Positions 1,252 through 24,275 of a stretch of 32,126 nucleotides of DNA are shown piece by piece. The stretch's first letter is position 1. The number at the start of each line of letters is the position of its first letter. This DNA is from Candidatus Moraniibacteriota bacterium. Its GTDB lineage: Bacteria; Patescibacteriota; Minisyncoccia; Moranbacterales; UBA2206. Both the position numbers and the translations under genes were made by a program. The stretch covers positions 1 through 32,126 of the forward strand of contig JAHFOP010000001.1 of the NCBI GenBank assembly GCA_023261605.1. Direction: 5' to 3'. The notes below the pieces were generated by a model that did no database searches, was not told the origin of the DNA, and worked only from the letters and a program-made list of their open reading frames with translations.

Positions 1252-2922
1252 ATGAAAAGTGATATTGAAATTGCACAGGCGGCGGAAATGAAGAATATTA
1301 AAGAAATTGCTGGAGTAGCGGGTATTGTGGAAAGCGAATTGGAATTGTATGGAGATTATAAGGCCAAGCTGAAACCGGAGCTGTGGGAGAGGATCAAAAA
1401 AAATAAGGATGGGAAATTGATTTTGGTGACAGCCATCAATCCGACGCCGGCCGGAGAAGGCAAGACTACCACCTCCATTGGTCTTGCCATGGCGATGCGG
1501 CGATTGGGGAAAAATGCCATGTTAGCCATTCGTGAGCCATCACTTGGGCCATGCATGGGCATGAAAGGCGGTGCGGCTGGAGGCGGGTATGCACAGGTTA
1601 TGCCAATGGAGGATATCAATTTGCATTTCACGGGGGACTTGCACGCCATCACAACGGCCAATAATTTACTCTCGGCGGTGATTGATAATCATATTTTTCA
1701 TGGCAATGCACTGCGAATTGATCCGCAAAGAATCGCTTGGAAAAGAGCGATAGACTTGAATGATCGAGCACTGCGGGAAATTGTTGTAGGTTTGGGTGGT
1801 AAATCGCAAGGTGTGCCACGAGAAGATGGTTTTAATATTTCTGTTGCTTCGGAGATTATGGCGATACTGTGTCTAGCGGAAAATATGAATGATTTGAAAA
1901 ATCGTTTAGAGAAAATAATTATTGGGTATAATTTTGATAACAAACCAATATTTGCGCGCGAATTGAAAGTGACGGGGGCGATGGTGACACTTTTGAAAGA
2001 CGCGATGAAACCAAATTTAGTGCAGACGTTGGAACACACACCAGCATTGGTGCATGGCGGACCGTTTGCCAATATTGCGCATGGTTGCAACTCGGTTCTC
2101 GCGACGCGCTATGGACTTAAATTGGGGGATTATCTCATCACAGAGGCTGGCTTTGGTGCAGATCTTGGTGCGGAAAAGTTTTTCAACATTAAATGTCGAG
2201 CCGCTAAACTTCGACCGGACGCGGTGGTTTTAGTAGCTACGGTGCGTGCTTTGAAATATAATGGCGGGATGGACAAAGAAGCACTGCCTTTGCCGAGTAC
2301 GGTATTTTTGAAGAGAGGCATACCAAATTTAGAAAAGCATATTGAAAATTTGAAACGTTTTGGTGTGCCAGTGGTGGTGGCCATAAATGTTTTCCCAACT
2401 GACACGCAAAAAGAAATAAAGCTTTTGGAAATGAGCATTCGAAAATTAGGCGCGATTTGTGCGGTTTCAGAAGTTTGGGCGCACGGAGGAGAAGGTGGTG
2501 AGAAACTGGCGCAGGCAGTTTTGGAAACTTTGGCAAAAAAGAAAGCTAATTTCAAAGTACTCTACAGTGAAACGCAGCATTTGAAGACCAAGATTGAAAC
2601 GGTAGCCAAAAAAATTTATGGTGCAGCTGGTGTGGAGTTTAGTGTGAGAGCGAAAAAGCAAATGGAGAAATTGGAAGAAGATAGAATGGACAAGCTCCCA
2701 ATTTGCATCGCCAAGACGCAGTATTCTTTGTCGGACAATCCAAAACTTCTTGGACGTCCACGAGGTTTTGTCATCAACATTTCAGACCTGCGTATTTCCA
2801 ACGGAGCTGGATTTATTGTAGTCTTGGCGGGTGACATAATGACCATGCCTGGACTGCCGAAAGTTCCGGCGGCGGAGAAAATTGATGTGGATGAGGAAGG
2901 AAAAATTTCCGGGTTGTTTTAG
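1252..2922 (+). CDS. fhs: formate--tetrahydrofolate ligase
   Basis: 556 aa. N-terminus SDIEIAQ, P-loop-like [10 protein letters not shown], and [18 protein letters not shown] are typical of FTHFS. The length is canonical. Confidence 0.95.
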
Positions 2923-6148: not shown

Positions 6149-6457
6149 GCCGGGTTAGCTCAGTGGTAGAGCAGAGGACTGGTTTTCGGTCCGTTCCAGA
6201 GTAATTTGGAAATGAAAATTGGGTGAATTCGAGGAAGCCTAAGTTGTCGAAAGATAATAGGGTAATCTCGAGCTAAGCCTCAAAGGGTCTAAGTTTTGAG
6301 GAAAGTGTAGAGACTAGCAGGTGAGTCCCAACAATAATCTTGCAAAAGCGCCCAACTCCCGCCTGGCGGGATGATGAAATAGTCCGATCCTTGAGGAAAC
6401 TCAAGAAAAATGATAAGGAAAATCCTTGTGTCCCCAGTTCAATCCTGGGACCCGGCA
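6149..6457 (+). tRNA. tRNA-Phe(GAA), split gene: 5' exon 6149-6180, group I intron 6181-6417, 3' exon 6418-6457
   Basis: The joined exons give GCCGGGTTAGCTCAGTGGTAGAGCAGAGGACT|GAAAATCCTTGTGTCCCCAGTTCAATCCTGGGACCCGGCA. This folds as a canonical 73-nt cloverleaf with anticodon loop CUGAAAA, and it closely resembles my recollection of bacterial tRNA-Phe. Confidence 0.9.
6181..6417 (+). ncRNA. group I self-splicing intron (IC3-like, ORF-less, 237 nt) in the anticodon loop of tRNA-Phe
   Basis: P1: exon GGACU (6176-6180) pairs with GGUCC (6188-6192), with a U.G wobble at the splice site. P10: UUUUC (6183-6187) pairs with 3' exon GAAAA (6418-6422). Omega-G is at 6417. P2 6194-6211. P3 TTGGG (6219-6223) / CCCAA (6327-6331). 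P4 6228-6233 / 6267-6272. P5/P5a carries a GAAA loop (6238-6261) and a CCTAAG receptor-like motif. P6 6278-6284 / 6295-6301. Conserved core GTGTAGAGACTAG is at 6305-6317. P7 GACTA (6312-6316) / TAGTC (6380-6384). P9 is CTTGAG-GAAA-CTCAAG (6390-6405). Confidence 0.88.
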
Positions 6458-6465
6458 CAGATAAA

Positions 6466-6493
6466 GAATTTTGAATTTTGAATTTTGAATTTC
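6466..6493 (+). repeat. tandem heptamer (GAATTTT x3 + GAATTTC) in the tRNA-Phe/tRNA-Gly spacer
   Basis: Direct reading. Inverted copies (TTCAAAATT) lie at 6546-6554 and 6567-6576. A central AATGTTT/AAACATT hairpin spans 6514-6536. Confidence 0.8.
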
Positions 6494-6581
6494 GAAATAA
6501 TGATTTAATTTTTAATGTTTAAATAATTAAAACATTTAAAATTTTTTCAAAATTAGAAACGCAACATTCAAAATTCAATAA

Positions 6582-22716: not shown

Positions 22717-23352
22717 ATGAAAAAGCGATTATTTATTTTTTTTACTTTGGCGGGATGGATGTCTTTTTGTCCAGCAACTTTTGCTGACACTAGCACTGGC
22801 ACTGGCAGCGCAACCTTTGTTAACCCGTTGGGATCAGTAACGACTGTTTCTGCTCTTTTGAGTTCTATCCTAACTAACTTGATGGGTGTGATCGCGATGA
22901 TATCTTTGATTTTTATTATTTTGGGCGGGTTGATGTATATGTTGAGCGCGGGTGATGAAACAATGGTGACGAGAGCCAAGAAGACTTGGACGGGAGCGGT
23001 GATTGGATTAGCTATTGCTATGGCAGCTCCAACATTTTTGAAAACAATCCAAACGATTTTGGGCGGAAATAGCAACACAGGCGCCAGCGCGGATAGTTGG
23101 GTGAGCAGTTCGCTCACTCTTCAGCAAATCGCAATGAATGTTTTGAATTTGTTGTTGTCAGTTATCGGAATTATTGCTATGATTGCAATGGTTGTAGGTG
23201 GCATAATGTATCTAACGGCGGCGGGGAATGAGAAGATGGTTGACAAGGGCAAAGATATTTTCAAGTATTCCATTATTGGAATAGTGGTGGCTCTCTCTGC
23301 TTTGGTAGTCATCAATCAAGTCAGTGTGCTTTTGACAGGCTCTGCAGGATAA
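22717..23352 (+). CDS. secreted double-module TrbC/VirB2-like (T4SS-pilin-like) membrane protein
   Basis: A signal peptide (...CPATFA|DTS) is followed by two copies of a TM-Y[ML][LT][SA]AG[DN]E-loop-TM module (aa about 55-105 and 145-200). Confidence 0.75.
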   Translation: MKKRLFIFFTLAGWMSFCPATFADTSTGTGSATFVNPLGSVTTVSALLSSILTNLMGVIAMISLIFIILGGLMYMLSAGDETMVTRAKKTWTGAVIGLAIAMAAPTFLKTIQTILGGNSNTGASADSWVSSSLTLQQIAMNVLNLLLSVIGIIAMIAMVVGGIMYLTAAGNEKMVDKGKDIFKYSIIGIVVALSALVVINQVSVLLTGSAG

Positions 23353-23408
23353 AAACAAAAATCAGGTGATTTCTAAAGATAAAAAATAAAATAGATTGGA
23401 GGTGCAAT

Positions 23409-23771
23409 ATGAAAAATAAAATTAAATCAATCGGATATGGCGCAATTTCAGCTATGATATTGGCGGCCCCGGCTCTGGCCAACGCTCAATTAGACGTCAC
23501 GGCCGGTGGAGGAACTGGTCTTCCGAGTAACAGCATATTTGCGATTGTTACCAATATTATGAAATGGATGTTAGCCATCGTGGGCATTGCGGGAGTGATC
23601 GGATTTGCTTTGGCAGGATTGCTTTATCTAACGGCGGCCGGAGATGAAACCAGAATTGGAACTGCAAAGAGCGCAATGCTGGCTTCCATTATTGGAGTGA
23701 TTGTAGCCTTAGCTGGTCTCGTGGCGCTGCAATTTGCTAAGACAATGTTGGGAGGTTCAGCACAATTCTAA
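23409..23771 (+). CDS. secreted TrbC/VirB2-like (T4SS-pilin-like) protein, single module
   Basis: GGAGG RBS, signal peptide ...APALANA|Q, then IAGVIGFALAGLLYLTAAGDETRIGTAKSAMLASIIGVIVALAGLV. Confidence 0.78.
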   Translation: MKNKIKSIGYGAISAMILAAPALANAQLDVTAGGGTGLPSNSIFAIVTNIMKWMLAIVGIAGVIGFALAGLLYLTAAGDETRIGTAKSAMLASIIGVIVALAGLVALQFAKTMLGGSAQF

Positions 23772-23811
23772 TTATAAGGAAAAGCCTTTTGAAATTTCAA
23801 AAACAAAAAGT

Positions 23812-23842
23812 GGCTGTGGATAATCCCAGCCTTTTTTGTTTT
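23812..23842 (+). terminator. intrinsic terminator between pilin-like genes 2 and 3
   Basis: Stem GGCTG(T)GG/CCCAGCC, then TTTTTTGTTTT. Confidence 0.6.
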
Positions 23843-23868
23843 CAAAATAAACAAAGAAGTGTTATAAT
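23841..23868 (+). promoter_or_regulatory. promoter of the third pilin-like gene
   Basis: TTCAAA-N16-TATAAT with an extended TG (TGtTATAAT). Confidence 0.45.
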
Positions 23869-23906
23869 ATGTTTGTAAATAAAATAAAATAGAATATAAA
23901 AATAAA

Positions 23907-24275
23907 ATGAAAAACACGAAAAAAGTATTATTTTTAAGTCTGGTTATTCTAGGGGGAATGTTTTTTGTTGGGCAAGCGCAAGCAGCTTCTACAGGCTGGA
24001 ACATTGACAGTCTAACTTCCTATGGCCTCTCAAGCGCATCTATTAAGGATATCCTGGTGAATATTTTAAATTGGATCCTAGGCATCTTAGGAATTGCGGG
24101 TGTGATTGGTTTTGCTATTTCAGGGTTTATGTATCTTTTGGCCGCGGGCAATGAAACAATGACAGGAAATGCCAAAAAAGCCATGACAGCTTCAATCCTG
24201 GGTGTGGTGGTCGGCCTTTCTGGTTTAGTTATTATCCAAGCGGTGGATATGGCTCTTAACGCAACTACTTTCTAG
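23907..24275 (+). CDS. secreted TrbC/VirB2-like (T4SS-pilin-like) protein, single module
   Basis: Signal peptide ...VGQAQA|AS, then IAGVIGFAISGFMYLLAAGNETMTGNAKKAMTASILGVVVGLSGLV. Confidence 0.78.
   Translation: MKNTKKVLFLSLVILGGMFFVGQAQAASTGWNIDSLTSYGLSSASIKDILVNILNWILGILGIAGVIGFAISGFMYLLAAGNETMTGNAKKAMTASILGVVVGLSGLVIIQAVDMALNATTF

Follow-up and report, generated by a model that had tools for sequence, protein, structure and literature searches.

A probable Phe.2Ug-class group I intron with an extra P7.1 hairpin in a split tRNA-Phe(GAA) gene

Do positions 6149-6457 of contig JAHFOP010000001.1 hold a tRNA-Phe gene, what interrupts it, and is such an interruption new? The first 32,126 nucleotides (nt) of this contig, all of which were analyzed, are hereafter called the window. 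Run with default settings, ARAGORN calls eight tRNAs in the window, none of them tRNA-Phe, and 6149-6457 has no match to the Rfam tRNA model either. A sequence-only reading had proposed that a compact group I intron without an open reading frame (ORF) interrupts a tRNA-Phe(GAA) gene here, between U33 and G34, and that this combination of host and insertion site might be new.

With introns allowed, ARAGORN reports 6149-6458 on the forward strand as a tRNA-Phe(gaa) whose intron spans 6181-6417 (237 nt); the junction is printed as 'ggact-Intron-gaaaa'. As had been proposed, removal of 6181-6417 restores a canonical 73-nt tRNA-Phe(GAA) cloverleaf with the anticodon loop CUGAAAA, the joined exons reading ...GAGGACU|GAAAAUCC... 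across the junction. The Rfam model RF00028 (Intron_gpI) matches 6171-6406 (+) over its full length (1-253) with 76.6 bits (E = 5.5e-18), above the gathering score of 50 bits, and the longest open stretch of the intron in any frame is 47 codons. This match, covariation among homologous introns and the existence of intron-less orthologs all agree with the first proposal. The locus is thus very probably a tRNA-Phe(GAA) gene split at U33/G34 by an ORF-less group I intron of the Phe.2Ug class, with an IC3-like core and an additional hairpin, P7.1. The gene escapes default tRNA finders, so that such a genome would falsely seem to lack tRNA-Phe, which skews completeness and codon-usage inferences for Patescibacteria.

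Covariation in a family of same-site introns

One genome from each of 185,579 species was scanned for a G immediately before a tRNA-Phe 3' half. Of the 91 loci returned, 52 carry homologous introns at the identical U33|G34 site: a tRNA-Phe 5' half lies 213-283 nt upstream, and the insert, 213-283 nt long, starts with G(A/G)(A)UUUUCGGUCC. This count is a lower bound, since the scan pattern demanded the T-loop GTTCRAWTC, which the T-loop of the window gene itself (GTTCAATCC) does not fit. About 30 of the 91 matches were false introns and were excluded; apart from seven described below, most of them have no 5' half within 2.5 kb. When the loci of ten relatives were scanned with Rfam, the tRNA-Phe intron scored above the gathering threshold in nine of ten (67.8-93.8 bits); L003, of these relatives the closest to the window, and L037 had no match at this threshold.

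The deposited labels of the 52 loci are mostly Patescibacteria (Moranbacteria, Falkowbacteria, Parcubacteria, Berkelbacteria, Saccharibacteria and Magasanikbacteria), with some bins labelled Gammaproteobacteria, Bdellovibrionales or Nitrospirota. Exon sequence and tRNA neighbors of the Gammaproteobacteria-labelled loci are mostly those of Falkowbacteria loci; the Bdellovibrionales-labelled ones have another tRNA context, and L049 has no neighboring tRNA. We suspect generic or mistaken labels.

The 53 sequences (the window and its 52 homologs) were aligned with MAFFT, and a P1-P10 model was drawn on the window (Table 1). In this model 92.5% of the cells are paired, versus 81% in shuffled alignments, and 42 of 71 pairs show changes on both sides. 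None of 500 shuffles reached any of the five measures, and sliding the partners by one column lowered pairing to 49% or less. Every pair covaries in P2 (7/7), P6a (7/7), P7.1 (5/5) and P9 (6/6); P3 is 100% paired, with double changes in four of its seven pairs, and several pairs of P4, P5a and P6 covary as well. P1 is paired in all 53 sequences, its U.G pair being invariant (53/53), and it changes together with the exon: GGACU/GGUCC becomes GGAUU/GAUCC (C32:G to U32:A) in seven sequences, which represent two or more synteny groups. P7 is invariant in 53/53 and is therefore neutral as to covariation. P10 is paired in 93.5% of the cells, with the outermost pair lost in 13 sequences, and does not covary because the exon never varies. 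A G at the omega position in 53/53 members had been built into the search pattern.

RNAalifold, which cannot draw pseudoknots, was run blind and returned the same helices, with double changes in 46 of 63 pairs. P8 is only 56% paired in the drawn register, this variable-length helix being poorly aligned by MAFFT; a covarying P8 was recovered in the family by RNAalifold, whose register is preferred. A single-sequence minimum free energy (MFE) fold of the window intron recovers P1, P2, P3, P4, P5, P5a, P6a, P7.1, P8 and P9 (z = -3.3). The sequence-only reading had placed P1 with its U.G wobble, P10, omega-G, helices P2 to P9 and the GAAA tetraloops of P5a and P9 correctly, P10 being supported by conservation and most of the helices by compensatory changes. 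It had also noted CCUAAG receptor-like motifs. The one in P5 (6238-6243) holds up, with the partner strand UAGGG in place of the canonical UAUGG found in many relatives; the other, 'CUAAG' at 6289-6293, is part of the P6a loop and is no receptor.

Bracing of the fold probably comes from L2 and L9, the GNRA loops of P2 and P9, together with three base pairs formed between the loops L6a and L7.1. The GAAA loop of L9 probably docks on the CCUAAG region of P5, as in the Azoarcus intron, and the GUAA loop of L2 probably docks on P8.

Since it cannot draw pseudoknots, RNAalifold paired the exon GGACU with the 3' strand of P7 and not with the guide. This pairing was rejected in favor of P1, where both partners change; in the alternative, only one side does (CG to UG, in seven sequences). 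The exon at 6176-6180 is indeed complementary to (U)AGUCC at 6380-6385 and resembles GACUA of the P7 5' strand, and such a pairing might compete with P1 or P7 as the RNA folds.

Four introns (L005, L053, L056 and L067, labelled Berkelbacteria or Saccharibacteria) lack P9; introns of this kind are as short as 213 nt and end 8 nt past the P7 3' strand (...UAGUCCAAUCAACG|GAAAA). In seven false introns (L007, L014, L029, L033, L063, L069 and L089), the tRNA-Phe is intact and its 3' half recurs once or twice, 180-470 nt downstream, with a G before every copy. They come mostly from Acidobacteriota-type metagenome-assembled genomes (MAGs), L029 being labelled Omnitrophota, and the repeated halves resemble the attachment-site repeats expected where an element has integrated into tRNA-Phe.

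Exon junction and predicted splicing

A 49-nt ligated junction matched eight Joint Genome Institute (JGI) metagenome contigs. On all eight (L094-L101), the Phe position of the series Leu(GAG)-Val(TAC)-Phe-Gly(GCC) is taken by a tRNA-Phe without interruption, and none of them has a group I intron match. The tRNA-Phe genes at L095:12932-13004 and L099:11085-11157 equal the joined exons of the window in 73 of 73 nt. These intron-less orthologs corroborate the predicted exon junction.

L095 is the closest relative seen, with amino acid identities to the window of 85% for formate-tetrahydrofolate (THF) ligase, 79% for FolD, 73% for RluA and 82% for L19, and the nearest intron-bearing genomes (L003, L011 and L057) reach 50-73% in flanking proteins. 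When genomes are ranked by distance from the window, those with and those without the intron are intermixed, so that it has been gained or lost more than once. Its distribution is patchy: some close relatives have it and others do not.

The exact boundary calls for a separate argument. G stands at both 6181 and 6418, so the ligated product fits insertion at 33/34 and at 34/35 alike, and an intron at 6182-6418 would leave that product unchanged. We place the intron at 33/34 because of the U-1 rule and the wobble pair of P1. A 34/35 site would put G instead of U at -1 and would abolish the P1-closing U.G pair that no family member lacks; moreover, the U-1/omega-G pair occurs in 98.5% of 5292 tRNA introns (Williams 2020, bioRxiv, doi 10.1101/2020.01.27.920355). 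The shifted boundary is thus extremely improbable, and insertion at 33/34 is retained in what follows.

The steps of splicing can be proposed from homology to characterized group I introns. P1 would form when the guide GGUCC (6188-6192) pairs with GGACU, exon nucleotides 29-33, in competition with the anticodon stem, and the U33.G pair would mark the 5' splice site. An exogenous guanosine held in P7, where homology predicts the guanosine-binding site (G6312-C6384, beside the bulged A6311), would attack after U33 (U6180). Omega-G (6417) would then take over the guanosine site while P10 (6183-6187/6418-6422) aligns the 3' exon, and the 3'-OH of U33 would attack after omega-G, ligating the exons into the anticodon loop CUGAAAA. 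We infer catalysis and splicing in vivo on this basis.

Table 1. Features of the split tRNA-Phe gene and its intron, in window coordinates
Feature	Position	Strand	Description and support
tRNA-Phe 5' exon	6149-6180	+	Positions 1-33: acceptor, D arm, 5' anticodon stem, C32, U33; ARAGORN
Group I intron	6181-6417	+	237 nt, no ORF; Rfam RF00028 and same-site homologs
tRNA-Phe 3' exon	6418-6457	+	G34 to discriminator A73; CCA not encoded beyond C6458; ARAGORN
P1	6176-6192	+	Exon GGACU 6176-6180 with internal guide GGUCC 6188-6192; U6180.G6188 wobble at the 5' splice site
P10 guide UUUUC	6183-6187	+	Complementary to 3' exon GAAAA 6418-6422
P2	6194-6211	+	7-bp hairpin, GUAA (GNRA) loop 6201-6204; compensatory changes and MFE fold
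P3 5' strand UUGGGUG	6219-6225	+	Partner 6349-6355
P4	6229-6234/6266-6271	+	Compensatory changes, MFE fold
J4/5 AA	6235-6236	+	Within segment 6229-6271
P5	6237-6239/6261-6263	+	CCUAAG at 6238-6243
P5a	6244-6248/6253-6257	+	GAAA loop (L5a) 6249-6252; compensatory changes, MFE fold
P6	6272-6274/6304-6306	+	U-A in the window and L003 where others have C-G
P6a	6278-6284/6295-6301	+	L6a begins with GGG 6285-6287; 7/7 pairs covary
P7 5' strand G(A)GACUA	6310-6316	+	Bulged A6311; partner UAGUCC 6380-6385
P7.1	6317-6343	+	Additional hairpin, inserted after P7 and before P3'; stem of 5 bp; the 17-nt loop, UGAGUCCCAACAAUAAU, is conserved
P3 3' strand CGCCCAA	6349-6355	+	Family alignment pair count
P8	6357-6371	+	6 bp, 3-nt loop; MFE fold; unusually short for the intron family
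P7 3' strand UAGUCC	6380-6385	+	J8/7 GAUGAAA 6373-6379 just upstream
P9	6390-6405	+	6-bp hairpin, GAAA loop (L9) 6396-6399; 6/6 pairs covary
Omega-G	6417	+	Terminal intron nucleotide; joined exons equal the intron-less ortholog

Relation to known introns and a candidate loop-loop contact

Williams 2020 screened 80,413 bacterial genomes for intron-split tRNAs and raised the number of tRNA intron classes from four (Leu.3Ug, Arg.5Ug, fMet.2Ug and Ile2.5Ug) to 21. In that numbering, '2' denotes insertion after the second anticodon-loop base, U33, so that the classical cyanobacterial fMet intron ('2Ug') lies at 33/34, the site it has in common with the window intron; the sequence-only reading had erred in placing known sites only at 34/35 or 3' of the anticodon. 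The seed alignment of the preprint holds Mba55.Phe.2Ug, a tRNA-Phe intron after U33, and for this reason neither the host tRNA nor the site is new and the suggested novelty falls away. The window intron joins a known, uncharacterized class, Phe.2Ug, with which it shares the host tRNA-Phe, the site after U33, U at -1 and omega-G. Beyond the preprint, our literature search found only a passing remark on tRNA-Phe introns or tRNA introns of the Candidate Phyla Radiation (CPR). The general picture is unchanged, and the interest of the locus is modest: it concerns tRNA annotation in Patescibacteria, a possible dependence on a ribozyme and a testable contact between L6a and L7.1.

Mba55.Phe.2Ug and the window intron are 70% identical over 216 aligned columns, with P7, the P7.1 loop and P3' nearly identical. 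The core of the former, GGUGUAGAGACUA-acggg-ugagucccaacaauaau-cccgu-auaAGCGCCCAG, is nearly that of window 6303-6356, and both introns have the P3 strands (C/U)UGGGUG and CGCCCA(G/A), the P7 sequence GUAGAGACUA, an identical P7.1 loop and GGG in L6a. Mba55.Phe.2Ug differs in its exon/guide pair (GCCCU/GGGGC), in P2 and P5, in its long P8 and in its minimal P9. The window intron belongs to a GGACU/GGUCC sub-lineage of Phe.2Ug, for which 52 further members were found. In the same preprint, the Lys.2Ug, Asn.4Ug and Leu.1Ug introns (Dba165, Pam37 and Mga42) also have P3 strands GGGUG/AGCGCCC and the P7/P3' hairpin as in the window, Dba165.Lys.2Ug being 69% identical to the window intron, but they differ in host tRNA, insertion position and P7.1 loop sequence.

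The classical IC3 introns of Azoarcus tRNA-Ile(CAU) and of cyanobacterial tRNA-Leu(UAA) and tRNA-fMet are, like the window intron, compact, ORF-less and located in the anticodon loop, with GNRA loops on P2 and P9 and a CCUAAG-type receptor in P5. The core string GUGUAGAGACUAG of the window (6305-6317, J6/7-P7), whose likeness to the Azoarcus core had been noted in the sequence-only reading, is matched by GGUGUAGAGACUAGAC in the Azoarcus-type Aol6.Ile2.5Ug of the Williams alignment. Overall identity of Azoarcus-type and tRNA-Leu IC3 introns to the window intron is 62-64%. Their hosts are different tRNAs, the Azoarcus intron follows position 36 while the Leu intron follows position 34, and the classical introns have no P7.1 and hence no L6a/L7.1 contact. 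Strictly defined, IC3 introns have no extra helix between P7 and P3', and the window intron has one; given its covarying P7.1 we call it IC3-like without assigning it to IC3 proper.

In subgroup IA (phage T4 td, Twort), P7.1/P7.2 helical elements stand between P7 and P3'. The Clostridium botulinum transfer-messenger RNA (tmRNA) intron in the Williams alignment also has a helical insertion there, as in the window. The window intron differs from subgroup IA in having one hairpin only, and its P3, P4, P6 and P7 strings are IC3-like rather than tmRNA-like.

What the P7.1 hairpin might do is suggested by its loop, which is almost invariant in the family and in which CCC (6327-6329) matches the GGG at the start of L6a (6285-6287). 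The L6a/L7.1 triplets read GGG/CCC in 43 sequences, GAG/CUC in four, AGG/CCU in three and GGG/UCC in one. They are complementary in all 51 scorable sequences, which none of 5000 permutations equaled in a fixed-offset test, and the two members without the L6a GGG also have an unrelated P7.1 loop. L6a (GGG) and L7.1 (CCC) are therefore put forward as a candidate tertiary loop-loop pairing. The contact is unmarked in the consensus structure of Williams 2020, and our literature search found no description of a P6a-P7.1 contact.

The P7-P7.1 motif also occurs in ten IMG/VR contigs (L103-L112), eight of which have an Rfam group I match. All eight matched introns carry GGG/CCC, and none lies inside a tRNA gene; they have the same P3/P6a/P7/P7.1 core, a GUGAG(N)CCCAACAAUAA loop and a long 3' extension, L107:257-483 being an example. 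We term these possibly viral contigs phage-like. A broader joint reading would have P7.1 and the L6a/L7.1 pairing define an undescribed IC3-like sub-type present in Patescibacteria tRNAs and phage-like contigs, the window intron possibly sitting in the only tRNA-Phe gene and its patchiness arising from endonuclease-independent movement (phage transfer or reverse splicing). We consider this combination speculative and, taken whole, rather unlikely. If it were true, all phenylalanine decoding would depend on RNA self-splicing. With 53 tRNA and eight phage-like sequences, the family provides a small, well-sampled ribozyme whose extra hairpin and loop contact are directly testable.

Genomic setting and competing explanations

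The window lies within a European Nucleotide Archive (ENA) metagenome contig of 70,959 bp (ERZ27279563:k141_3835511). Neighboring genes are housekeeping ones (formate-THF ligase, FolD, an RluA-family synthase, L19, IF-2, GroEL, NusA and RNase Y), and the gene order Leu-Val-Phe (split)-Gly...Cys-Leu(UAA) is that of the Moranbacteria MAGs L003, L011 and L057. The host is most likely an uncultured, Moranbacteria-like member of the Patescibacteria, and a reduced genome is plausible. Three consecutive small genes at 22717-24275 have matches to T4SS_pilin (PF18895), a family that we take to be found mainly in Patescibacteria and hence as a hint at this host.

Within the 42.9 kb covered of the 71-kb contig there is no second tRNA-Phe, and an intact one is likewise absent from all 52 intron-bearing loci. 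Lui et al. 2021 (PMC8172020) reported tRNAs for all amino acids in circularized genomes, nearly all of them CPR, and noted that group I introns in some tRNAs hampered detection. This remark fits intron-split tRNAs being sole copies, without constituting proof for the window genome. The intron may interrupt the only tRNA-Phe gene; if so, translation in a minimal cell would depend on a ribozyme.

Homing introns have an intron-encoded or adjacent endonuclease; here, the intron has no ORF, and six ORFs on either side, including the four nearest, have no Pfam endonuclease match. The presence/absence polymorphism is compatible with past mobility or loss.

Several points weigh against an active intron in a sole tRNA-Phe gene. 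Splicing of the window intron is predicted from sequence, P7 and P10 never vary and are assigned by homology, P8 is unusually short, and the receptor strand of P5 (UAGGG) is non-canonical. A second tRNA-Phe may exist elsewhere in the genome, and the host assignment comes from synteny and 50-70% protein identity to labelled MAGs within a biased set of loci. The closest relative found has no intron; the intron is therefore dispensable for the lineage, and the window copy could be recent.

Taken furthest, such points would make the locus a tRNA-Phe pseudogene whose real intron no longer splices, with an intact tRNA-Phe elsewhere in the genome: the second-copy search covered 42.9 kb of the 71-kb contig, close relatives carry intron-less genes, and both the very short P8 and the off-consensus P5 receptor could be signs of decay. 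However, the window has kept the whole family-invariant core (P7, J4/5 AA, the J8/7 pattern, the U.G pair and omega-G), the exons equal those of functional-looking orthologs in 73/73 nt, and the gene occupies the conserved single-copy slot Val-Phe-Gly, with no intact tRNA-Phe in the 52 intron-bearing loci. Intron-bearing tRNAs also figure among the complete sets of Lui et al. 2021. We regard a pseudogene as very improbable and retain the split gene with a splicing intron.

That intron could still need protein help from the host, by a chaperone or by a cofactor resembling a synthetase, if the compact ribozyme were too unstable alone. The short P8 and the degenerate L9 receptor in P5 would agree with such help, and the P9-less relatives suggest that peripheral elements can be dispensed with or have been substituted. 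Efficient self-splicing is, however, established for small IC3 tRNA introns like that of Azoarcus, and the core strings of the window intron are identical to those of the Azoarcus-type intron. The family would also have extra RNA-RNA bracing through P7.1 and the L6a/L7.1 pairing, and the intron has no maturase-like ORF, nor do the four nearest ORFs have a significant Pfam match. Protein-dependent splicing thus appears improbable, and self-splicing is the preferred account.

Two further observations concern neighboring sequence. L070 contains a second group I intron (2233-2851, reverse strand; Rfam match 2250-2465) two genes from its split tRNA-Phe; it is ~620 nt long, with ~390 nt of extra 5' sequence and no P7.1 hairpin, and by eye its host reads as a tRNA with anticodon CAU, interrupted after U33 and missed by ARAGORN. 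In the window, the spacer between tRNA-Phe and tRNA-Gly (6459-6581) is extremely AT-rich, with four tandem GAATTT(T/C) units at 6467-6494 and a long A/T palindrome at ~6504-6543; in relatives, the same position is instead occupied by a GC-rich hairpin, GCGGGCTTTGCCCGC.

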